64,000 nucleotides of DNA from Balanoglossus misakiensis. Its lineage: Eukaryota; Animalia; Hemichordata. The DNA lies in the NCBI GenBank assembly GCA_040954595.2, contig CM082596.2, positions 3,403,025 to 3,467,024 on the forward strand. Reading direction: 5' to 3'. Numbering within the stretch: position 1 is the stretch's first letter; every line of letters starts with the position of its first letter. The notes below the pieces were generated by a model. That model was not told the origin of the DNA, did no database searches, and worked only from the letters and a program-made list of their open reading frames with translations. The position numbers and the translations under genes are program-made. Positions 10,725 to 54,200 of the stretch are shown one piece after another.

Positions 10725-11499
10725 GTTGATCACTGGATGAAGATCAGGTGACTACGTACCCCGATCAGGTGACTACAACATGACCCTTATAAATGGGGTC
10801 AAAACCAGCCAATGGGGGATGACATAAAAGTTTCATTTCAAAAAGCGCCTAATATTAATTAAGACACTTTTATTTAAAAAAAAACACAGTATAAATACAT
10901 TGTGATAGAAACGAGCAGCCAACCATTGTTTGAACAAAATGACATAACAAATACAATGATAATATGTGTAATTTAATGATTCATAAAAAGGGGAAATAAT
11001 GGGCCAAATGTCAATTTGAGAATTATAAAATAGCCTACCAGTGTGCATCTGAATTGTATCTGGTTGTCGCTCCTTTTTTGCCACCATCAAGCTGCAGAGG
11101 GTTCAGTGTGACCTGAATTTATGAAAAGTTAGTCGGTTGACCTTGACACGTACCCTGCCTGAATAGGTTGTCACAGTGCAGTTGTCCCAGTTATGTACAT
11201 GTATTGAGGGATATTTCCATTCTGCAAAGAATAAAACCTATTAGCAAAATATCCAATTGTATAACCGATTGCATTCGGCTGTGATATATGTCAAGAGTTT
11301 TTAAGTGAGTTTTCAGTTTCTATTCTCAAACATGATCCATGTATGTTTGGCATGACCTAGTCAAAGATGAGAGTGACCCCACCTGAATGAGACACTGGAA
11401 GAACCCTATGCAACACAACAATGAAACTGGGTTAAAGTATAATTGATCCGCGGCATACAGCTGGTACGTGCACATCATAGTATAAGTGTCACGACTAGC
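10725..11499. promoter_or_regulatory. Divergent (head-to-head) intergenic/promoter region between the SOD and ACSM genes
   Basis: 775 bp separate the two ATGs. The region contains a duplicated GATCAGGTGACTAC (10742-10755, 10763-10776), TGACCC-N-GGGTCA flanking TATAAAT (10781-10801), and CCAAT at 10809. Confidence 0.6.
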
Positions 11500-14400
11500 A
11501 TGGCGTGCCGTATTTTGGGGAGAAAACTTCATCATTGCAACAATTGGAGTCTGGGCGTCAGGGCTGTGGCTGCCTTTAACAAAAATATCCGAAATGTCAC
11601 AAGTTTGGGAGGAACCAGCAAAGCAAAATGTCATGTCATGTCGTCACATTTCTGGACGCAATATCTGAGGTCCCACTGCACTGCAGTATCAGCAACCGGA
11701 TACACTGATTTCCAAAAGGAAAAGGAAAACTTCAAATGGGAAGTGCCGGAATACTTCAATTTTGCAACCGATGTAGTTGACAGGTGGGCCGAGAAAGAAC
11801 AGGTTGGTACAAATCTGGTAACAATGACCCCATTTCAATATCTGATGTGTGTAAAGAAAACAAGGATAAGGTCACGAATGTCACCTCTTAAGGTGAAGGT
11901 CCCAGATTAACCCACCAGTCAAGTTATGGCATTTACTTTAACTTCACCAACAGACCGGGGAACGTGATGCCACTGTACCTGCTCTGCACTGGGCAAACGA
12001 TGCTGGCGATGAAATTAAATGGACTTTCCAAGACATCAGCACCAAGTCTAAAAGGTAAAGTTCTGCCATGTTTATGACAAATTAGTGGTTATAATTCAAA
12101 GTATTTTAATCATGATCACAAAATAACTGTCCTTTCCAACTTTAGCCATTTAACATCAAAGTAAAAATACTTCAAATTACCAGAATTGTAACTTTGTTCC
12201 TTAAAACAATAACAATTGGATGATCTTTTAGCAGTTTTCTGCTTATTTTGTCTTTCATAGGACAGCAAATCTACTGACACATGATTGTGGTTTGAAAAAA
12301 GGTGACAAAGTTATCGTCATCTTAGAGCGTGTTCCTGAATGGTGGCTTGTGTACATTGCCTGTGTCAGAATTGGTAAGTATGATTTCAATGCTTGTTAAA
12401 TTTCTTAGGACAACTTATTTTGTGATCATTGAACCAACCACAATAACCAATATCAACTGATTAACCGCGACAGATATGAACATCTCAACTCCTTGCGTGA
12501 CAGATTCACCAGTCAATGACAGAGAAATGACAAAGATCTTTCTCTTTGAACTCTTTGAACAGGTGCCATTATTTGTCCTGGTTCTCCCCAATTGAGGACT
12601 GCTGACATTGAATATAGATTAACTATTTCCAAGGCAACTACAATCATAACTGATAGCGAGCATGCAGAGATGGTGGACCAGGTACATGTACTTCCCTGGT
12701 TTCCTTCAAGAGGGTTTTCTACGTACATGTCATTATGGTTTAAGGATTACTAGTAATACCCAACAGATATTTAGCTCAAGAGATTGATTTGATTCTAGCA
12801 TTAAGATCATTGGCCACCGTATAAACTTATTTTACAGTTTGAGTTGGCCAGCTATGGGCACTGATTTCAGAAGAGCAATCAAATATAATTGCTAACTTAA
12901 TGATCATCTCTACATTGATGTGTGGGGGTGTCTGTGTGCATAAACACCATGTACTTACATATGTATATTTTTTAGGTTATAGAAGGCTGTCCTGATGTGA
13001 AATGCAAACTTTTAATACCTAAAAACAAAGAAGAATCAAGGTATGAATTTACAAATGTAAGCGATCTTTACCGCATGAAGTTTTCAAAATGTTACAATAT
13101 GTACTCAGAGGTAATTGTAATAAGGAGAAATTCCATGACAATCGTCAACAGATGACAAATTTCCGACTTTGCGATCTTCTGTGATTGATCAAGGACGTGC
13201 TTCTAAGGGCCAAAAGATGTCCGCAAAAAGCACCGCCAGCAAGGCGTGGTTATTGGTTATTGTTCAAAGTGCATTTGGTAAGTGCAGATTTTATAGTTCC
13301 GGCAGCAACATCTTCTCACATCGCATACTTTAATTATTACTTATTTGTATTGTTCAGGTCAGGCTGGCTCCATTTCCGTGAACTTTTTGACAAAGCAGAC
13401 CATAATTTTGAGGCAAGTCAACTCACTTCTTGTGAAACAGAAATGGAAACCGAAAGATGTACTGGTTGCTATAGTGATGAACGTGTTCAAGTGCTGGAGT
13501 GTTAGCAGAGATTCCTGAAGACTTAATTAATCTTGCTGTCTTGTAGTAAGAGGTCATTATTTTTTTTAAATCTCCTTTATCCAGGCTGTTCAAACGAAAA
13601 GTGATGATTCCATGGTTGTATTCTTCACCAGTGGAACTACTGGTAAACCTAAGATGACTGAACACACTCAAGCCAGCTATGGCATAGGACACACACTCAC
13701 AGGAAAGTAAGATCCTGTCCGACTCAATTGTTTTCATTTGTACAACATATTTTTTTTTCTTCAAGTTTTCGCGTGCAATTGGTTTAAAACTTTCACCTTT
13801 TTATAATTCAAAGTGTTAAGATCACAGCAAGCAAATGTTGACATTTTATCATATCTGAATCAAGATGTTGAATTTTTGTTTCTGTGTCAGGTACTTTATG
13901 GATTTGACAAGTCGTGATGTCTTCTACACATTGGCAGACACTGGCTGGGCAAAAGCTGCCTACAGCTTCATCTATGCGCCTTGGATTTGGGGTGCATGTG
14001 TGTTTGCTCACCACTGCCCCATGTTCGGCCCTGTTCATACATTGGAGGTAAATTCGTACATATTTCAATAAATGTTCTTCAGGTGCAATGAGAGCACATC
14101 TGGGAACAACTGTAGTTTCCAAACACGGAAATCATTTTTTTTTACCAAAATATTTTCCCGCAAGATTTTATAATACAGTCACAAATAGTATCAAAAATGT
14201 TGCAGTTAACCCTCGTCAACTCATGGCCAATTTAACATAATGAACATCTAACACTAATACTGGTCAGTTTCAATTGTGCTCATTTTGTGGGTATTATATT
14301 CAGGTTTTGCAGAAATATCCAGTCTCTGTGTTCTGTGCCCCGCCAACAGCTGTCCGTATGATGGTTCAAGAAGATCCTGCACATTTCAAGTTTCCGCATC

Positions 14401-16173
14401 TTCGCCGGACAGTTTGTGGAGGTGAACCAGTGGTGAGAGAGAACATCAAATAAAATGTATTGGAGTGGCTTTCAGAAATAGAAAATAAAATGTCGGTCTT
14501 CACCAGGTGACATTTGAATATGACAATCCCAATGCTGACATACATGTTGAAGCATTCTATCAATGAACTGTATTCCGTTTGTTCGATTTCAGAATCCAGA
14601 AGTTGTCCATGCTTGGAAAAAATTAACCGGTATGTCCATCTATGAAGGATACGGCCAATCAGAAACTGTGAGTTGATTTGTGATCATTTATAACATTTTC
14701 CCAACGCTCAGAATTACTCTCCTCTACTGATGTGCACTGACCTAGAAGTAGTTGTCACCCATGTTATAACTACATGTACAGCATTGATAGTTGCAGTGGT
14801 CTTGATGACGGCGATGTTGGCCATGACGATGACGATGACTATTGATGATTCTTTACTGACAATTTTGCAGGTTCTACTGTGTGGAACTTTTCCTGGGGTG
14901 AAGCAACGACTGGGATCCATGGGAGTTGCCTGCCCGGGAATGGATGTTCGAATTGTTGACGACGACGGAAACGAGCTGCCTCTCAATGAGGAAGGTCACA
15001 TCGCTGTGAAAGTCAAACCAGAGAGGCCACCGTGCCTATTTTCACAGTATCTGGTGAGTCTTCATTACATGTATGTGATCATCCACTTATGTGCCTGAAC
15101 TCTATCACAGTATCTGTGTACCCGTTTCACAAATTTCTACATTTCCGTTTCCGTTACCCAGGACGATGAAGAACGCACAGCTGCCGCTTTTGTTGGTGAC
15201 TATTACCTCACAGGTGACAAGGGTTACAAAGACGAACACGACTACTTCTGGTTTGTGGCCAGAAAAGATGATGTCATCATATCGGCAGGGTAACATTTTA
15301 CTTTGTGTTGATCACATGACACTGTCACTTTATATACAGATAATTTTGGTGTAGAGAGCAAATTTATAGATGATGAAATATTTTTTGACAAGGATTTTAT
15401 CCAGGAGGACCTGACCCTCTGATAAGCTTCTGGTAGATTTGAGAAATTATGTTAACTTACTGATTTAAATACACTGGCTGTATTTTTAATCATTGATATT
15501 TGCAGACATCGCATTGGTCCATTCGAGGTGGAGAGCGCCCTATTGGAGCACCCGGCGGTAGCTGAGTCGGCAGTCGTCAGTAGTCCTGATGAAATTAGAG
15601 GCGAGGTAAGAACAATTAAAACTCTTTTGTTTAAGCCTTTTTGTTTAATAGTAATACCTGGATGTTTAGTTTCATCTTGTGTCAGGAGGTTGGTAAGATT
15701 TTAACTTTTCTCACTTTTTGGTTGTCATGGTTACTCACACAGATTGTGAAGGCTTTCGTAGTCCGATCCTTACAACACAGAGACCGCGATGAAGTTGAAT
15801 TGATCAAAGAATTACAAGATCATGTGAAGAAGGTAACAGCGCCATACAAATACCCCAGACAGGTCAGTTTAGTCACACTTCAATATTCCTTTTATCTTAC
15901 GTGTTTGCTTTCTATAAAGGTTGAGACTGTGCTGAAGCATGTCAGGTTAATAATAACTGGAACAGATTTAAAGTGAATTTTATACCCAAATCACCAGTAT
16001 TGCATCATTAGGACTATATTAAGTTTCCTTTTAATAATCACAAATGCTACTAAGATTTTCTGTTTATTTTTTTCGTTTGACAGATCGAATTTTTAGATGA
16101 ATTACCCAAGACTGTTAGTGGCAAGACCTTGCGATATGTGCTCCGCAACAACGAATGGAACAAGACGTACTAA
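11500..16173 (+). CDS. ACSM: Acyl-CoA synthetase, medium-chain family (ACSM-like), mitochondrial; 15 exons, ~619 aa
   Basis: Exons 11500-11802, 11954-12054, 12261-12373, 12563-12681, 12976-13040, 13358-13412, 13585-13706, 13891-14047, 14304-14432, 14593-14667, 14871-15053, 15162-15289, 15506-15605, 15743-15862, 16084-16173 (1860 nt, open frame). Motifs: [28 protein letters not shown] (P-loop), [52 protein letters not shown]. The Arg-rich, acid-free N-terminus resembles a mitochondrial presequence. Confidence 0.95.
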
Positions 16174-17054: not shown

Positions 17055-20000
17055 TTATGCCGTTGGTTCGGGTTTTATCTCGCTCTTCTCCGACGTGTCG
17101 TCATCGGTGGTGAACGAGAAGGACTGCTGAACCAGACAGTAGCGTCTGATCGTCATGGTTTCAGTGGTTGCCATGAGACGGCACTGGTGTTTGTAGTCGT
17201 CCATGTAATCCCTCAGTCGTCTGCTATCAAGCACAATATCCTGGCGTCGGCTTTTGGCGTCGTCCATGTTACTCAACCAGGGGTGGTGCAGGCATTCAAG
17301 CACAGTTGGTCTGTCCCTGAGAATAAAAAGGCAAAACGTAGAGTGCAAATGTATGAAAAAAATTCTAAAGAAATCTATAGAATTCTATGGCCTATAAAAT
17401 TTCCATTGAAATTTATAGAATTTCTATGGACATCTCTAGAAGTTTTCTGTAGTTTTGGCCATTTTTTATTGAATTCTATGAAACTTTCATCTGGCACATA
17501 TACTTACTTGCCGTGTCTTTGTAATGTAAGTTTTAAGAAGTCTCTGGCTTGATCGCTGACTTGGTGGTGGAGTTTGGACAGGTCACACGACGTGGTCAAA
17601 ATGTTGGCCATAGTCTCTGATTTGTCCTTGCAAAGAAATGGCGACACACCACTCAACCTTAAGAAAAGAAAAAATGAAAGTGAGAGTATGTTTTCCATAT
17701 ACCTTTAAACTTGAGTGTGAGATATAAAATTACAGAAATTAAAGACAAACGTGAAATATATTCAAATAACTCACATGATGAATGTTAGGATACCAATAGA
17801 CCAGATATCGGTGGCAGTGTTCACCAGCTGTCCTTCAACTGCCTCTGGAGCTGAAACGATGTAAAATAACTTAAATGCTTATAATGCTCAATAGGATAAC
17901 AAATGCAGACTTTTTGGCCACAACAGATAAATTTAGTCTCCCATCTTACCGGACGATGTTCAATTTATCTCGAGATGTTCTTTGTAATATGAAAAGTGAC
18001 ACTTTTCTGTTTGTGTCTACAGTATCCCAATAAAGAATGTACACCAGGGGATTGGTACATAATAACACATCCAGAGGAGCAAAAAGTCATATCATAATCA
18101 ACACATTAGATTCTCAAGAAACTACTCACCCATAAACTCTGCCATCATCTCGACATCAAGTTTGATCCCCTTCGGATCGGCAAGTTTCCTCGCAGAGCCA
18201 AAATCAATAAGTCTGACATCATTCCTCCTCCTGCTCTCCAGCAAGACGTTGTCCGGTTTGATATCCAGGTGGACGATATTCTGCGAATGCACGTAGTCAA
18301 CCGCATCTAGGAGCTGCTGCAGGAACTCCACCACCTCGTCCTCGGAGTACGAGCCCTTGCTGGCCAGGTAGCGCGTCACCGGTCCGCCGTAGTACCGCTC
18401 CGTGATCAAGATGAGGTATCGGGGCGTCAGGAAGGCGTCGTGCAGCATGCCGATGCGTGGGTGGCGCAGGTCCTTCAGGAGTTCGAATTCCTTGAGGACG
18501 TGACTTTCGGTGTCCAGCTTGATTCTCAGCATTTTGGCGGCGTATTCAATGTTGGTGCTGTGCTCTACGCACTTCTTGACCACAGCAAATCGACCCCTGT
18601 AGGCGAAAACAGTAACATACTTATTTAATTTAAAGTCTATGACAACCTTAGGAAACAAATTTTGTAAAAAAAATTACGGCATCTGCTGAAATGAAATGAG
18701 GGAAAAAATCTAACTGAAAATGAAAGCACTAGTTCCATCACTCAAAGTGTAATGCATAATTGGAAAGTTAGTTTCTTTCAATCAGATCTCTACCAAGTTT
18801 TCAGGAGAGCACACTTACATGCAACTAATCAAAAACCCAACTCCTTACCTTCCAATCTCATCTTCAAAGTTATAATTCTTCTGAGGTATTGACGTCTTCA
18901 GAGTGATCACAACTTCTTCATCGGCATCAACAGACTCAAATGATCTTTCTGTTGAGGACTGGCGTTTCATCCCAGCAAAACTAACCGATCTCAAAACCTG
19001 TAATCGGTCCGATCTTTCGATTTGAAGTTGGGGAGAACCTGTGAAAAAAACATGTCAGTTTGTACATAACAAAATTTTCAAGCAATAGTTTTGTTTTCAT
19101 CAATAACTCGTGGAGTGTTCAGTTTTCTGTAAAATTACTACTTCTGCAGTTCAGTCAATCTTGTAAAATTTGAACGTTACAGTCACAGATATTTGTGAGC
19201 TGACTACAGGTTCGACAGACAAAAATAATTAAAACTTCTGGTCCCTATTTCTTTCTCTCAATGGCTGATACATTCGTAGAAATCAGTGTTGAAGTTGAGG
19301 TAGAATCTGACCACATTACTGCTTTGACAATTCCTAATCCACTCAGTGCTGATGAAGGCGAGATTTCTGTAATTGAGAAAATTTGACACGCTACATACCT
19401 GCTGGCATGGTCTTCACCTGTGCAGATGATCGACTGTACGGACTGGATCCAATCTTATTGCGGCACGCGATTCGGAATCTATATGGTGTGTCTGGTTCCA
19501 GATTCTTGACATGGAGACATGCTTCTTGAATTTCATCAGATACCAATACCCAGTGTTTTTCACCTGAAATGATTTTTGGGATATTCAATGCAGCATTTTT
19601 ATCAAACAACAGTTTCACGATCTGGTAATAACTTGTTGTACTGCATGGAATTATCCTGTGATACATTCTGACTTGTTCCATCAGTCAATAAAATACAGTA
19701 CTGCTAGAAAGCAACCAGTTGAAAAAGCAACATATCACACTGGGAAAGATCTTACCTGCTTTTCTGTATTGTAGTTTGTAGGCTTTGAGAGGACAGTTGC
19801 CTGTGTAGTGTGGCGCTTTCCATGTGACAAATGCTTCCGTAGCTGATATCAGTGGCACTCGAGGTCGTGAAGGCTTGTCAGGTAGATCTGGAAAAAGAAG
19901 GGTGGAGCTGTTGGAAATATATATTTTGGATATGCCACATTCCTACTATTGTAGATGAATATTTTGATGGGGACAGTCTTAACTTGTTCTGAATTTTCCA

Positions 20001-20403
20001 CTTTTCCACCAGACAAACATTCAATTTGGTCAAAATTGGTCTTCATCAAAATCATGGTAAAATATGATATTGGATTAATTACACACTGGGGTACACCTGC
20101 ATACATATGCTTTCTCACCTGCAATGGCCACCTTTGCTGTCGAGTGTACGTTACCAAGTCTGTTAGCTGCCATACACCGGTAAACGCCGACGTCATCTTC
20201 ATCGGATTTCTCAATCCGTAGAAAACTCTTTCCTTGTTCGTCTGTCCACATCTTCACCTGCTCGCTGTGGAAGAGTTGGTGGTCTTCCTTGAACCACGTG
20301 ATGGTGGGCGTGGGTTTCCCAATGACCCAACACGACATCTCCACGGGCTGGCCTTCGACCATCGGCGTGTCTTTCAACAGGATACGGAACACGGGTGCGA
20401 ATT
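17055..20403 (-). CDS. SPEG/obscurin/UNC-89-like C-terminal module: Ig - Fn3 - kinase 3 (SK2-type)
   Basis: Exons 20403-20119 (Ig), 19887-19756 and 19563-19399 (Fn3), 19038-18849, 18596-18130, 17850-17775, 17657-17508, 17316-17055 (stop). Kinase motifs: EIGRGRFAVV, YAAK, HLDIKPDN, DFGSA, EFMAPE, DIWSIG, LSGVSPF, RPTVLECLHHPWL. GRF and HLDIKPDN are typical of the second kinase of SPEG/obscurin. Confidence 0.93.
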
Positions 20404-20671
20404 CTGCACATGGGAAGACAATAAAGATGAGTTTAAATACGCACAAAAAAGTTTTCCTGGCATGATGAAACAATGAGAAAAAAACGTGGACATGTTAGAA
20501 AAGGATAATGTCTGCGATGTTTTCAGAATCTGAAATCCACTTCCAAGAATGCTGGTGTACTACCAGCCCCTTTTTAATTAGTCTTGTATTTTTAACTAGG
20601 CAGAGTTGTTATTCAAGTTTTAAGTCTTCAACATTTGGGTTCCAGATTGGTTAAAAGGTTAAATGACTTAC

Positions 20672-20690: not shown

Positions 20691-21360
20691 GCGGTAATGA
20701 CAGTGTTTTAGTGGGAGGAGAGTCTTGGTTAGTGGTGGGAACAATCGGCATGCTTCCAGGGTTGAACCACTCGGGTATTGAGAAATGCAAACCACTCCAA
20801 GCACAGTGCGCTCAGTATGTATAGGCTATAGTTGCCATCCCTTCTACCGTACATCTTTCGGAAATTTTGCAACTTGCCACATAAAATTGCTCCACATCAC
20901 AATGATTTCAGAAATAAATCCTCATTGAAATTAATAATTCACAGGGATTTAAGAACAAACATACAATGATGCAGTTAGTTATGAGTATATAATGTCATTA
21001 TTTTCAATGGATAAAAAAGTGACAGTACAGTTGAGAATCTTATGAAAAATAATGTTGCATAGAGTGAAGTATATTTGCATTCCATTGGAAGTATTACACC
21101 CTTATCAAAGTCAAAGGTACCTGCATGACTGGAAAAATATTTACACAATTTAGCAGAATGTACCGATTATTTACAATTAATAAGGGTATGTGACATAAAA
21201 ATATGTTAAATTTCACTGTTGTAGCTTAAAGATGCATCCCATTGAAGTGTATACATTTTCAGTGTAAAAAGTAGTAAATATCAGAGTATGAAAAATTTGT
21301 TTGCAGACTAAGGAAAATTTTGTGTCTAAAAATCTCCTTTATCCAATATGGAAAATAGGA

Positions 21361-22986
21361 TTATAAATTGACAAAAATGTCTAAAATAACAGCAATTATA
21401 ATGCCGCATATGGCACTCAGTATGATTCTAAAAGTTGGACTGAATCTTAGCCGGACTGTCATAGGAATTTTCAGTTCTTCATAGCTGACTGTTTGGTTCA
21501 GCATGATTTCAAGGTCTTTCTCCATTTCCTCAATGGAACGTTTTTCGTCCACAGTGCCGGCCGACGAGGCGCGTTTCAACGCACCAAAGAATCCATAATC
21601 AGTGTTTGCTTTGGGCAGATCTTTCTTCAAGTGAAGTTTCATCATAGTCTCCGCGAGGGACAGCATTTTGGGTTTTGCGTTCGTCCCGTTCTCTGCAGAA
21701 TCTTTGTTTTCGTTTTCGAGATTGAAGGAGACACCAAGACGTCTCTGCCTCGGAAGGTTTTGTTTCAAAATGGACGCCTGTCCTGATTTATTTGCGGGAT
21801 TCTCGGCTTCCTTCTCTTCCAGATGTGTATCCTCCGTCACTGTTTCTAGATCACTCAGACTTCTCTGAAGTCTGGAATCATTCCCTTTCCCACTTTTCAC
21901 TCCTGATTTCTTATCCGGAATGTTATTATTACTGAGTGACACCGAATCACCCATACTGTTCAAACGTTTGACACAATTTTCTGATTTGGTGTGATCGGCT
22001 CGCGAGGATTCTTTAACTGACAACCCAGCCTGTCTGACTCGAAGCTCTTTCTTTTCTGCAGGTTCAGCTAAGTACACCTTCTTACTAATCTTTTTAAAAG
22101 CCTGTCTGAAAGCGTTATCCTCTTTGGGGGAAAACTGCATGGCTTTCTCATATTCCTGCTCTACGGCCGTCGGTGGGACTGCCTCACATTCGACCTCCGA
22201 GTTGGTTTCGGTGTAACACCCGACACAAGTTGTGATCTCATCACTTTCGTCTCTGTTTTGTGAGGCTGCTGTCGTTTCATACACAACAGAGCTTATCGTA
22301 CTCGTGGAGGTAATTCTAACAGTGGCTGTGTCTCCAGTTTCAGACTTTGTCGTCATAGTAACCATTTGCCTATCATCATCAATGGTTTCTATCTCGACAT
22401 CACAGTCACTTTCGCTTGCATCATACTCTGTCTCCCTATCTAACTCTGAACACTTTTTAGATCGACAAACCGCTAATCTTTTCACAGCTCTTCTATTGTA
22501 AGTTGGCATCCTGGGTTTTCCAGGTTTACAGCCTGCAGCTGACTTTATGGCAGACTTTTCTGAGTGTGAATCTAATTCATCCAACACCTGCTCTATGTTT
22601 ACTGGACTACAGCTACACCATGCATAGTTAGCCGTGGCATGCTCTACATTCGGGTACAAATCCTTCCTCAACAGTTCCTTGATAATTCCTGGCGGTGCAA
22701 GCATAGGCATATTAAGTCTGTGAATACCTTCCACGTCTCGTGCCGTCTTCTCCTCTTCCGGTTTCTTCTTCCGGCTCAACGGAAGCTGCGGAATCTTGAT
22801 GGAGATCTCGCCCTCCTCTGCCTGGATGTCCTCCGAGCTTCCCGACTTGGTCGCCGGGCTGCGCTCCGTGTCCGACGTCCCGGAAGCGGTGCCGGGGGTC
22901 TGCCTTCCCAGGTCGGAAAGCGAGTCGGAGCTGATTGTGGAGAGACGGCGGATCCTCATGGCGGATTTGACAGCTGTCAGTGCTTT
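21361..22986 (-). CDS. Post-kinase-2 exon with internal donor (22728); read-through yields a ~455-aa unique tail ending in a transmembrane helix
   Basis: 541-codon open frame from the acceptor at 22986 (KALTAVKSAMRIRRLS...). The internal donor GAAG|GTATTC at 22728/22727 is phase 1 and fits exon 20403. The ORF otherwise continues to ...RFSPTFRIILSAICGIIIAVILDIFVNL*. Confidence 0.8.
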   Translation of the reverse strand, partial: KALTAVKSAMRIRRLSTISSDSLSDLGRQTPGTASGTSDTERSPATKSGSSEDIQAEEGEISIKIPQLPLSRKKKPEEEKTARDVEGIHRLNMPMLAPPGIIKELLRKDLYPNVEHATANYAWCSCSPVNIEQVLDELDSHSEKSAIKSAAGCKPGKPRMPTYNRRAVKRLAVCRSKKCSELDRETEYDASESDCDVEIETIDDDRQMVTMTTKSETGDTATVRITSTSTISSVVYETTAASQNRDESDEITTCVGCYTETNSEVECEAVPPTAVEQEYEKAMQFSPKEDNAFRQAFKKISKKVYLAEPAEKKELRVRQAGLSVKESSRADHTKSENCVKRLNSMGDSVSLSNNNIPDKKSGVKSGKGNDSRLQRSLSDLETVTEDTHLEEKEAENPANKSGQASILKQNLPRQRRLGVSFNLENENKDSAENGTNAKPKMLSLAETMMKLHLKKDLPKANTDYGFFGALKRASSAGTVDEKRSIEEMEKDLEIMLNQTVSYEELKIPMTVRLRFSPTFRIILSAICGIIIAVILDIFVNL

Positions 22987-42600: not shown

Positions 42601-44236
42601 TCAACGTTTTTTGTTCATATCATATTACCTAAACAGCATCCGAGAAGACTTTTTTGCTAATTTCTCCTTTTGATTACATTGGTGTGACTTTGATTTAAAA
42701 GAGTGTCTGCTTCACAGAATTATACACCTTTCTTCAATGTGATATCATTGGCATGTATTTGATGGAATGATACTAACTTCTTCTATTATTCAAAGATCAT
42801 CTGAATAACATTATGCAGAAGTTTTCAACTTCTTACATAGAAGTAGAATACAGGAAGACGCATTTTGTTCGAAGATGACCACAAAGTGCCAGTTTTGTTT
42901 TACTTTTCAGATCTCTGACACACCAGGCCACTTACTAGTTTCAAAATAATGCCTAGTACAGCTATGAACAGCTGTCTGTAAAATATCATCTCCAATGACA
43001 AGACGTGACAACCTAAACCAAATATTTTTTCTTGGTTGGGTAATACGTCATTATCAACATGAAGAAATTAGATTTTTTTGTCTTGGAATGAAAATTTAAA
43101 AGTGAACGAAAAAGTGAAGTGTGGGTGTTACGGTACCTATGATCGGCTCCAAACGCCGGCAATGTAGCATGGCTAAGGATTGCATTGGTACAGATGTCAT
43201 ATACAGATGTCACTGAAACACGTCTGGAGATTCCTCTATCAGCGACTGTTCTGCCGAGTACACAGACAAACCACCCTGCATTCATATCTGTCACTGTTTC
43301 TGATTGGCTGACTCGGGTGGGTTGCCATGGTTCAAGCATGGCTACCTCCATGGTTCAAATCAAGCCACTCGGACTGAGGATGTCAGGGATCAGACTATCG
43401 TGATTCCATCATGGCCCACAGCCATCGCTTTTAAATTGATCCAATTAAGCAGTCGTTCTTATCAAGTGATAGCATCCACTAGTCATACAGCATTAACTGG
43501 CCGCCTCTGTTTGACTCTATCCGTAAAACGATATCCCGAAGTTTAAAAACTTTGAGAATCATGTTGCCCCCCAGCACTGTATCGTTAACAAAAACATTTG
43601 CCCCAATTCAATAACTATCCTAAATGTCGTATTTGTGTTATTAATGTCAAAAAGCTCTCATAAAATATTTCAAATTTTATCAAAGTTATTCTGTATTTCC
43701 ACGGACTATTTTGATACTTGAGTGACATATTTGTGTAGCGCTCATACTTGCACAGGGCAAAAAGCCACTATTTACACACTAAATTTAGTGGCTTTATGTT
43801 TATATATATAGATGGGATTATTGCAAATCTACTGTGCAGTCTTGCCCTGGGGTGGGTCAACAGAACCTAGGGTTTATGGCTTGCTGCAACAAGTATGACA
43901 TTTCTTGTCAAGAGAAAAAAAAAAGTGTGCAGACATCTTTGCTTTCACGCTAAATCAAAGTTGAAAATCGTAAAACTTTAAAAAGAAACTAGGAGCTGAA
44001 CTGGAGTAAACCTCAAATGATTTTTTCTGTGACCTCAACTGATTGCGAAATGATTGCTGGCATTCCGCGCAAAGTGGCAGGGAGGCGGCTGAGACCATAA
44101 TTCAAGCTCACTTGTCAGTCTCAATTGGTCTTTGTTTTTGTACGATGAACTTCACATTGAGAATTTCGTCCTCTGCTGCTGCAGCTGTGGGCAGCATGTC
44201 AAAGCCACAGATGACATCCAAAAACAGAACGTGTTG

Positions 44237-50367: not shown

Positions 50368-50373
50368 TTTATT
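50368..50373 (-). terminator. Candidate polyadenylation signal of the short MLCK isoform
   Basis: AATAAA on the minus strand ~920 nt downstream of the stop at 51292, after a U-rich UTR-like stretch. Confidence 0.45.
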
Positions 50374-51291: not shown

Positions 51292-54200
51292 TCACAGTGA
51301 CAATTTCCCCATACGCGTTAGTGCTCTCACAGCATTGAAAGCTTTCTGTGAAGTGAAAGGCAAAAGATAGAGTTAGTATTGTGAACATACATAGAAAACA
51401 GAAAAACCTGGAACTGAAAGAAAGCAATATATTGTCAGTTATAGTGATGATAACAATCAATGTACCCTCTCTGAGACAAATTCCGTTTTAACATGACACA
51501 CACCCCTTTGCACTGTATCTGCACATATAAGGGCAGATTGGCATGAGACGATACATACGTACATATAATAATTAGTACACTGTGCAAGGAGGTTATTGTG
51601 TTAGCACTATGTATGACGTAGTCATTCCTCAGATCGGGTTGGAGGAAAATTCTTGCAAGGAGAGATAAATTCCAAGTCGGAACACAAGCTGTGATGTGTC
51701 AGCTAGTCTATGAAGGGCATAGCAAATGGCATATTGGATGGTTAACAACTGAGGGGTCGTTGGGGATTCAACTTACCATGGCAACAAATCTGTGCAGTGT
51801 ACATCCGAGTGTTACGTGCTTTGGTGGAGATGCATGGTAAGCTTAGCAAGTCAGGGTATTTTTTAGTTGTCAGTTATTAGGCAAAGAAAAAACATTAGTA
51901 CATAAGTAGTTATTAAAAAAGGTGGATTTCTCTGGTTAACATGGTAACGGTAGTTTAGGTCTGAACAGGTCACTCTCATGACGTTACATCCTGGTGTATC
52001 AAAGTGGCCACTATAGACAAGTGTCCTCTATCTAGAGGTGGGTATTATACAGGATTGACTGTACATGTATGTGCTTTGGGTTGTCGGTGGACCACAGTGT
52101 TATGATGGGTTGTGCATTTTCCAGTGTTAGTACATTAAAATGCGGGACGGATATTCAGGATGTAAAATCACAAAAATAACAGAAAATGGTTATTTGTACT
52201 GACCTGCCACTTTCGTCTTGCCAAGAACCGTCTGATCCTGGCCTTGGAGATTTTGTGCGAGCTAGCAACATCTTTCTGCAATGGCGAAATAGAACGAGAT
52301 CATGTTAGACACAGAACAGGTGATGACGTCTGTTTTTACACAGTAGTGTTCATACTGGCTGCATCAGAATTATTTAGAAACAGCAATGTAAGGCAGGTTC
52401 GACTGAAAATGTTGACCAAGCCACTGTAGAAATGGAGGAATTTTCTTACCTTTAACCAATCAGCTTCTAGGGCGTCTGCTGCTGATAATCTCTCCCTGTA
52501 CAGCAAAAGAACAACAACCGAGAACGGTCAATCATTTCATTCTACAAGACAGCAACCTTATCTATGTCAGTGGAGCGGTCCCAGTGAACAAAAAACTTCC
52601 AATAAATCATCACAGAGAAGGGAAAAAATCACAAAGCACTCACCTAGGGTTGAGAACAAGAAGATTTTCAATAAATTCCTTAGATGCATCAGAGATCTCG
52701 TCAAAGGACTCATCCTCAAAGTCCCATTCGGCCGATGTGACGTTAGACATGGTCTCTCCATCATTGTCTCCCATGAATGGCGAGAGACCACTGAGCAGGA
52801 CGTAGCAGATGACACCTACGCTCCACATGTCTGTAGCCTTTGTAATCTTGTCGTAATTTATAACTTCGGGTGCTGTAAACTCTGGTGTACCGAACATTAC
52901 TTTAAGGGTTTCTTTCGGGTTGTATTTTCGAGCCAGGCCAAAGTCAATAATTTTGATCTTATTACTCTTAGGCCTTACACAGAGAATATTTTCAGGCTGT
53001 GAAAATAAGAGAGAAGAAAAGTGGTTTGTTAGTTCTTTATTCCATTGAATATATATAGCTACTTTTGAGCAGCAGCAAGGGCTGCAATGGCTTGTTGCAG
53101 AGATCTGTTGATAAACAGACGTCATCTGATTTGCCCGACTTTTGTATTATGCTGGCCTAGGAAATTACTGGGGAAATAGCTAGCATATCAGCATTCTATG
53201 TGTCATAGTTTCAATCCCCACAGGACATGAAGTACATATCAATTCTAAACATCCATCAAGATGCTATGAGCAACATCGTCTGCCTCTAGAAATGTTTGGA
53301 GCATTTCTTGTATTCTTTGCATCACTCAATTAATGGCCTGTGTCTGTACATCTTTGACCTTGGCTCTAAACTTTTGTCATTGAATGACCTTAAGTCATTC
53401 ACCTCGCTGTGGTGTCAACCGAAAAAATTTAATGTGAAGCGATCAGAAGAATCTGGGCCAATCAAAGGGTTTACTTGATAAAAGAATGTTATCAATTCAC
53501 TGCTGGGGCAATGTACTCACACATAACCAATTCAAAATTAATGGGAACTAGCCCTATAGCTAAACTAATTACAGACTACTGCATTTGTGGTTGCGTTGGC
53601 AGTACTTGTTTATAAGAAACTGTATATCCTAGGGATGTAAATTAAGGATATACAAAAGTTGCCCGCAGCAAATATCATTGGCATGGCAGAGATGTCACGT
53701 GCCATCATAGCAGGGGGTTCGCTTAGTTTACATATGTTTACATGTTTTCAAAAAACATCAAGGTTTCAGAGGTTTGTAGTTGCATGGTTGTTACATTCTG
53801 GGTTTGTTTTATCAACAAGGAATATATTTGCATTATTCTGCAAGTAGGAAATGAAAATACAGAATAACAGAATGTCTGAAACTAGATATGATGGATGGAG
53901 ATGAGCTGAACCTATTTTCCTTGTACTCTGGTCCAATCTCAGCAGTGAAATGCCAAGGACTAAACCAAAGTACAGTGATGATGAGGGGAGGGAGGGGTTG
54001 GCCTTACCTTCATATCCAGATGAATGATGTTTTTCTTATGCATGAATACTACGCCGTCACATATCTGCCTCATGAAGAACACAACTTCTTTCTCTGTCAG
54101 TTGGAAATCTTCTGCAACAACACGTTCAAACAACTCTCCACCAGATACACTGTAAGTGGAAAAACATTCAGATTTAATGATGAGACAATGACAGTCAATG

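Follow-up and report, generated by a model that had tools for sequence, protein, structure and literature searches.

The stretch of Balanoglossus misakiensis DNA analyzed here (64,000 nucleotides, referred to below as the window) carries on its minus strand one large obscurin/SPEG-like gene with three kinase domains. By tblastn and manual fitting of splice sites, the gene could be modeled as 36 exons with consistent phases, encoding a protein of 2332 amino acids that begins with MATKEPP and that, over the part starting at exon 56187, shares 90% identity with an obscurin-like protein of Ptychodera flava. Its domains run in the order Fn3, kinase 1, an Ig array, Fn3, two Ig, kinase 2, a linker of 114 amino acids, Ig, Fn3, and kinase 3. 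The features considered most closely here surround the end of kinase 2 (Table 1).

Table 1. Features of the kinase 2 region and of its two proposed endings, in window positions
Feature	Position	Strand	Basis or remark
Likely internal first coding exon of the kinase-2 module	43138..43170	-	8 of 11 residues agree with the N-terminus of P. flava X3
Kinase 2 exons and start of the RRKWQ regulatory segment	23254..30171	-	tblastn, exon model, motifs, tree
Exon common to both isoforms	22728..22986	-	opens with KALTAVKSAMRIRRLS, then an acidic/Ser linker
Weak phase-1 5' splice site AAG/gtattc, choice point between splicing and read-through	22722..22730	-	score 2.69
Extension by read-through (tail of 455 aa, mostly of low complexity, and stop)	21361..22727	-	open frame, codon score, Patiria homologue
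Conserved block 1	22108..22407	-	31% over 100 aa versus Patiria; E 1e-7 pairwise, 2e-6 for the whole window
Conserved block 2, short predicted helix	21634..21675	-	KPKMLSLAETMMKL; Patiria EPKLLSITELMLKI
Basic juxtamembrane segment RLRFSPTFR (Patiria LLRYSQTVR)	21427..21453	-	Patiria alignment
C-terminal hydrophobic helix, predicted tail anchor	21364..21426	-	Kyte-Doolittle, fold model
Ig-Fn3-kinase 3 exons	17055..20403	-	used when donor 22727 joins acceptor 20403; missing from the tail isoform

Kinase 2 is of the MLCK/twitchin/DAPK type and, with its Gly loop, AAK lysine, HLDLKPEN, DFG, and APE motifs intact, looks catalytically intact. It is followed by an RRKWQKAL-type segment, which resembles the calmodulin-binding region of MLCK; the second half of this calmodulin-binding-like segment is the KALTAVKSAMRIRRLS that opens the next exon. 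A kinase-2 isoform is probably calmodulin regulated. Among the best 60 of 141 solved relatives of the orthologue from the sea star Patiria miniata, twitchin, MYLK4, and DAPK1 were closest (E 1e-83 to 1e-75), with obscurin (1e-59) ranking behind them and titin also among the best; none of these 60 was DMPK. A 21-row tree placed kinase 2 with the Patiria kinase and the first kinase of Acanthaster, at a support of 93/93 that did not reach the level starred by the tool. In the same tree, kinase 3 fell with beetle obscurin PK2 and the second of the Acanthaster kinases (98/95, with a flag for long branches). Kinase 3 itself has a divergent activation segment, EMMAEFMAPE instead of GTPEF-APE, at 18140-18300 (minus strand), and has HLDIKPDN, in which Arg replaces Lys in the other three hemichordates.

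In its spliced form, the gene has the kinase-linker-Ig-Fn3-kinase arrangement of obscurin, SPEG, and UNC-89, for which a tandem-kinase layout is reported (PMC7957886; bioRxiv 10.1101/2020.04.03.023374), and the grouping of kinase 3 with insect obscurin PK2 (98/95) is a further likeness. The differences are several. The interkinase linker has 114 amino acids here versus the 647-742 low-complexity residues reported for UNC-89, obscurin, and SPEG (bioRxiv 10.1101/2020.04.03.023374). The SH3-DH-PH RhoGEF triplet of obscurin proper is not seen in the window exon model and does not appear among the best 25 of 30 Pfam rows of one hemichordate homologue. An MLCK module lies upstream in the window locus, and whereas invertebrate PK1 domains are reported to be pseudokinases (PMC7957886), kinase 2 looks intact. 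On these sequence features the gene is called obscurin/SPEG-like, rather than obscurin, because it is without the long interkinase region and the RhoGEF.

The open frame beyond donor 22727

The donor at 22727 is real: in the Ptychodera, Glandiceps, and Saccoglossus models, the same exon is joined to the Ig exon at 20403. Its score, however, is the second lowest among the gene's 32 U2-type donors, as expected of a site that is sometimes skipped. Past its GT (the exon starting at 22986), there is no in-frame stop until the TAA at 21363-21361, giving a tail of 455 residues, split codon included, whose C-terminal end is RLRFSPTFRIILSAICGIIIAVILDIFVNL. In-frame read-through at the gene's other 32 donors would add only 1-53 codons, and across the 32 other introns (31,422 nt) no frame stays free of stops for more than 137 codons. 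Not one of 2000 dinucleotide shuffles reached 454 codons, the maximum being 300, and a chance origin of the 455-codon open frame is excluded. The first-pass annotation, which was made from the sequence and had described a frame open for 1.37 kb past the donor, beyond chance expectation, was right in this. Its description of the DNA as AT rich holds only in part: GC content is below that of the exons (44% versus 49%), but it is not that of the introns (37%), and falls to about 33% only in the last ~125 nt.

The tail also has coding character. A three-periodic codon model was trained on the gene's own exons, with exons scored leave-one-out. By this model the tail scored +0.17 bits/codon in frame, whereas its two alternative frames scored -0.47 and -0.42; for comparison, 24 exons of at least 120 nt scored 0.03-0.83, and 148 intronic open stretches averaged -0.26, with a maximum of 0.31. 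Directly past the stop, the score is -0.7 or lower. Of 15 scoring windows lying wholly within the tail, four are negative, including the last one, which contains the helix: the last 30 codons have an intron-like score (-0.27), where the GC content falls. The helix codons nevertheless have T at 67% of second positions versus 19% of first positions. By a charge-hydropathy proxy, disorder is borderline (-0.011 for the window tail and +0.031 for the Patiria tail). A single-sequence fold of the last 110 residues had a mean pLDDT of 53.8, with low confidence except at the terminal helix, and it is this model together with composition that suggests a disordered tail.

We considered whether the frame could be an unexpressed relic, or a retained intron prone to decay, with a hydrophobic end that arises from T-rich noncoding DNA and leads to BAG6-type disposal. 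Hydrophobic C-termini are reported to be frequent in noncoding read-through (bioRxiv 10.1101/2022.07.20.500724), the tail is unannotated in hemichordates, and the helix region has the lowered GC content noted above. A canonical poly(A) signal is also absent: no AATAAA lies between the tail stop and 20404, where we found variants at 21343, 21172, 21075, and 21003 and an ATTAAA at 20578. Set against this are the three-base periodicity over 455 open codons, the concentration of T at the second codon position of the helix, the finding that none of 370 intronic ends is equally hydrophobic, and the retention in a sea star of the motifs, the juxtamembrane residues, and the terminal helix (see below). 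A relic or retained intron therefore seems to us distinctly improbable.

The shortness of the spliced linker relative to the family range (bioRxiv 10.1101/2020.04.03.023374) suggests another use for the frame, as a long interkinase spacer of the UNC-89/obscurin/SPEG kind, with an internal donor joining it to the Ig exon. There is a phase-1 GT with a score of 8.2 at 22187. We rejected this site, as splicing there creates a stop at the junction, and it would cut conserved block 1 as well. The ordinary exons (6,956 nt) contain three unused GT sites that are just as strong; apart from 22187, a single phase-1 site in the tail exceeds 3.5, and this one, at 21893, scores just 3.8; and conservation runs on to the stop. 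Such a spacer is barely credible.

An origin from a transposable element or an unrelated nested gene, which the first-pass annotation had named as grounds for refuting its reading, was looked for without finding a sign of it. Pfam gave no tail domain near the cutoff (best E 0.14) and no transposable-element domains, the only repeats around the frame are chance repeats of 12-19 nt rather than terminal repeats, and there is no second copy of the frame within the window; this origin was rejected. With the tail alone as the query, no homologue was found among proteins of similar length (250-797 aa) or among 1.84 billion representatives, and both searches missed the Patiria tail too. The ESM Atlas held no match to the window tail or to the Patiria C-terminus, and of the 597 and 159 pattern matches obtained in two metagenome scans, none was confirmed. 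The shared exon plus the tail, used together as the query, returned three acorn-worm proteins (P. flava obscurin-like X2, Glandiceps talaboti obscurin-like, and Saccoglossus kowalevskii SPEG-like), each covering only the first 16% of the query.

A related tail in a sea star

Only a query made from the kinase end and linker region of P. flava X3 brought up the Patiria homologue. It returned 12 proteins, including Acanthaster planci XP_022101989 and Patiria miniata XP_038047068. From the KWQKALT segment on, these two sea star proteins show a close alignment over 140 residues, after which they diverge. Past the divergence point, Acanthaster continues with Ig-Fn3-kinase and has 586 residues left, versus 579 in hemichordates, whereas Patiria has T-G-M-G and then a 560-aa tail with a hydrophobic end. 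The glycine at this point would be the product of an unspliced phase-1 G/GT. Both Patiria models of the cluster (XP_038047067.1 and XP_038047068.1) have the same ending, whereas the Acanthaster model is spliced there. The Patiria records are RefSeq predictions named "myosin light chain kinase, smooth muscle-like," with the anchor unmentioned in the names.

The two tails are collinear in two blocks, with 31/100 identical residues (E 1e-7) and 29/125 (E 0.004). The tail-to-tail score of 128 was reached in none of 1000 global and none of 1000 local shuffles, whose maxima were 86 and 88, respectively. The C-terminal block without the helix scored 52 versus a maximum of 51 in 2000 shuffles, this block having been picked after the alignment was viewed. 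Against all six frames of the window, the Patiria tail matched only the frame beyond donor 22727. The core of block 1 is GCYTE-x6-EAVPP, at about 22224-22171. The Patiria models share with the window an orthologous kinase, the switch point, collinear tail motifs, and a terminal hydrophobic helix. They differ in the length of the tail (560 aa versus 455), in having only about 22-31% identity confined to the two blocks, and in being without the Ig-Fn3-kinase module in both models. Among 38 proteins compared, only the three translations from the window and the two Patiria models had a hydrophobic C-terminus.

Conservation of the tail had been proposed as a check on the first-pass annotation, and the Patiria tail, homologous and likewise ending in a hydrophobic helix after the orthologous kinase, speaks for the tail-anchored isoform. 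The homology across phyla rests on predicted sequence from one species and two models. Among the ambulacrarian records retrieved, the tail was found in one of five other species; in the other four, only the spliced form was seen (three isoforms in Ptychodera and one each in Glandiceps, Saccoglossus, and Acanthaster). The best reading of these comparisons, we suggest, is that the tail is an ancient alternative 3' end of the gene, and it seems very likely that the tail isoform is real and conserved.

That leaves the possibility that the tail is made as its own tail-anchored protein, instead of or besides the kinase fusion, from a separate start at 22710 or 22704; in-frame ATGs lie 17 and 23 nt beyond the donor. 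We regard this as improbable, given that the kinase exon runs into the frame without interruption or change of phase and that tail and kinase are fused in both Patiria models. The searches described above also found no stand-alone homologue (250-797 aa; 1.84 billion representatives), with the Patiria tail missed in them as well. As a fusion with the kinase, the tail isoform would have 2212 aa from the first start. It may instead begin at the likely internal first exon, for an estimated length of roughly 1750 aa; the match of this exon to P. flava X3 (E 0.11) is weak alone but lies inside the expected intron.

The C-terminal helix and its predicted membrane

The best Kyte-Doolittle 19-mer mean at the C-terminus is 2.96. 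Because noncoding read-through easily yields hydrophobic ends, intronic controls and simulations were run. None of 370 intronic stop-proximal stretches matched this value (best 2.52), and simulations reached the hydropathy of the helix in 7 of 4000 cases when the last 75 nt set the composition and in 1 of 4000 when the next 300 nt did. Elsewhere in the 2097-aa model from exon 2, the next-best 19-mer is 1.61, within a kinase domain. The terminal helix was predicted at pLDDT 83-87 in the single-sequence fold. Its strongly hydrophobic core is only 15 residues long and is followed by DIFVNL, Asp coming first. The helix has a small-xxx-G-xxx-small pattern, and its Patiria counterpart is GxxxGxxxG. 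About 45 residues before the helix, at 21576-21562 (minus strand), there is a KRASS, by consensus presumably a PKA-type site; Patiria has RAVSF in a similar region, not exactly paired with it in the alignment.

The helix is followed by 0-6 residues in the window protein and by 0-4 in Patiria, so that the lumenal segment would be short or absent. No N-terminal signal peptide was indicated by a hydropathy proxy in the first 40 aa of six homologues (best 12-residue values 0.07-0.84). By prediction, the protein has the features of a tail-anchored protein: a single helix at the extreme C-terminus, no signal peptide, and a short or absent lumenal segment. A KASH anchor consists of a lumenal peptide of ~30 aa that ends in PPPX. 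The protein stops with DIFVNL right after the helix, and a KASH (nesprin-type) anchor was ruled out, there being no PPPX and no lumenal segment. The first-pass annotation had reported the absence of a PPPX ending, as well as a basic segment followed by a C-terminal hydrophobic helix, and both descriptions stand.

We favor, at a little better than an even chance, a reading in which read-through of donor 22727 produces an ER/SR-tethered, calcium-regulated isoform of kinase 2. Where the weak donor is skipped, a long flexible tail would come after kinase 2 and end in a C-terminal helix predicted to anchor the protein in a membrane, with tail and helix taking the place of the Ig-Fn3-kinase 3 module. 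The read-through RNA would be polyadenylated inside the 2.3-kb intron, since otherwise its stop would lie upstream of seven further junctions, inviting decay. Given that there is no signal peptide (no hydrophobic N-terminus), the helix would be inserted post-translationally, leaving the whole protein on the cytosolic side. If the isoform is real and conserved, there would be little doubt that it inserts into a membrane, and once inserted, it would likely be found at the ER or SR. The ER route would be favored by the hydrophobic helix and the short, non-basic end; in mammalian cells, high helix hydrophobicity combined with low tail charge is reported to favor the ER (PMC5450235). The SR part of the reading is suggested by known roles of the family. 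We imagine that the Ig/Fn3 array would sit on the contractile or cytoskeletal lattice, the Ca2+/calmodulin-regulated kinase meanwhile being kept close to the calcium-handling proteins of the ER/SR. To speak of a sarcomeric kinase, as the first-pass annotation did, is an assumption; adult echinoderm and acorn-worm muscle is largely unstriated.

The same isoform could instead go to another membrane (the mitochondrial outer membrane, the Golgi or plasma membrane after ER entry, or the nuclear envelope) or act mainly outside muscle. The anchors of DMPK are reported to differ in destination, ER or mitochondria, among isoforms and species (PMC2778554); in mammals, the classes of hydrophobicity overlap one another (PMC5450235); and the Patiria helix is less hydrophobic (2.37), with one Arg near its end. 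The window helix, in contrast, is very hydrophobic and has no basic residue at the end, a combination reported to favor the ER (PMC5450235), and the nuclear envelope is disfavored by the missing PPPX and lumenal segment of a KASH anchor. Overall, a destination other than the ER or SR, or a role mainly outside muscle, seems rather unlikely.

Alternative C-termini that determine membrane attachment are known from other proteins. DMPK is an AGC-group kinase, whereas the window kinase is MLCK/twitchin/DAPK-like; the window anchor also differs in coming after a spacer of ~540 aa and in replacing a second kinase. SLMAP is not a kinase. In likeness to the window gene, DMPK is a muscle-enriched Ser/Thr kinase whose isoforms A-D have alternative C-termini, some tail-anchored and others cytosolic, with the anchors directed to the ER or mitochondria by isoform and species (PMC2778554). 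In SLMAP, alternatively spliced C-terminal anchors (TA1/TA2) are reported to determine the membrane (PMC2712456). By analogy, the window isoform would work like the tail-anchored forms of DMPK without being a DMPK. The surprise is limited to that extent, as DMPK already provides an example of a tail-anchored kinase isoform that arises through alternative 3' processing.

Obscurin-family kinases act on SR structure and calcium handling, but they are reported to reach the SR via partner proteins. Obscurin-A binds sAnk1.5, and SPEG is at the junctional SR (PMC7023976); reported SPEG substrates are JPH2, RyR2, and SERCA2a (PMC8199188); and loss of large UNC-89 isoforms leaves RyR and SERCA disorganized (PMC3388081). 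No transmembrane isoform of the family came up in this literature, and to have one would set the window gene apart. A literature search, covering titles and the starts of abstracts with incomplete coverage, found no description of a transmembrane obscurin, SPEG, or MLCK isoform or of the ambulacrarian gene. If the favored reading is true, the family would include a member that has retained its own anchor in two phyla; this member would have a direct route to the SR, would be missing from hemichordate annotations, and would provide a simple construct for examining the effect of SR tethering on kinase substrates.

One can envision, as a tentative idea that we hold slightly more doubtful than probable, that one weak splice site has, since the echinoderm-hemichordate ancestor, switched the gene between two products, a soluble protein with tandem kinases and an integral ER/SR protein with a single kinase, with GCYTE-x6-EAVPP and PK(M/L)LS docking calcium-handling partners. 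If so, this protein would link myofilament and SR in one chain, where vertebrates use obscurin-A with small ankyrin-1 or SPEG with junctophilin, and the two sequences would be undescribed docking motifs.

Other ends, introns, and neighbors

The locus appears to be modular elsewhere as well, with a candidate MLCK terminal exon at 51345 and the likely internal first exon at 43170. After kinase 1, a candidate alternative terminal exon at 51345-51292 (minus strand) encodes KAFNAVRALTRMGKLSL followed by a stop, with an AATAAA at 50373; its use would give a stand-alone Fn3-MLCK protein of 433 aa. Among the models retrieved, the three-kinase form occurs only in P. flava X1/X2, and the locus may be an MLCK gene spliced on to an obscurin/SPEG-like gene. 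Farther downstream, an ATG-initiated MKEWMY at 20690-20672 (minus strand) is followed by a strong donor at 20671 (score 7.8), which is in the right phase for the Ig exon at 20403; between 21120 and this donor, no acceptor exceeds a score of 5. Possibly, 20690-20672 is an internal first exon for a protein with only Ig-Fn3-kinase 3.

Two neighboring genes were read by eye. The multi-exon gene at 10730-8903 (minus strand), with a hydrophobic N-terminus, resembles an Fe/Mn superoxide dismutase, and the convergent multi-exon gene at about 11200-16130 (plus strand) resembles an acyl-CoA synthetase (ACSM/ACSS-like). The latter ends about 900 nt past the kinase 3 stop.

Finally, the kinase 2 intron at 29339-26983 (minus strand) has a GTATCCTT donor and a CCTTAAC branch-like motif about 17-23 nt before its AG, which we take to be the U12-type consensus. 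The intron at the matching position of kinase 1 (54384) has an ordinary GTGAGT donor. This pairing of a U12-type intron in kinase 2 with a GTGAGT intron in kinase 1 suggests a minor-to-major intron conversion between the paralogous kinase domains.
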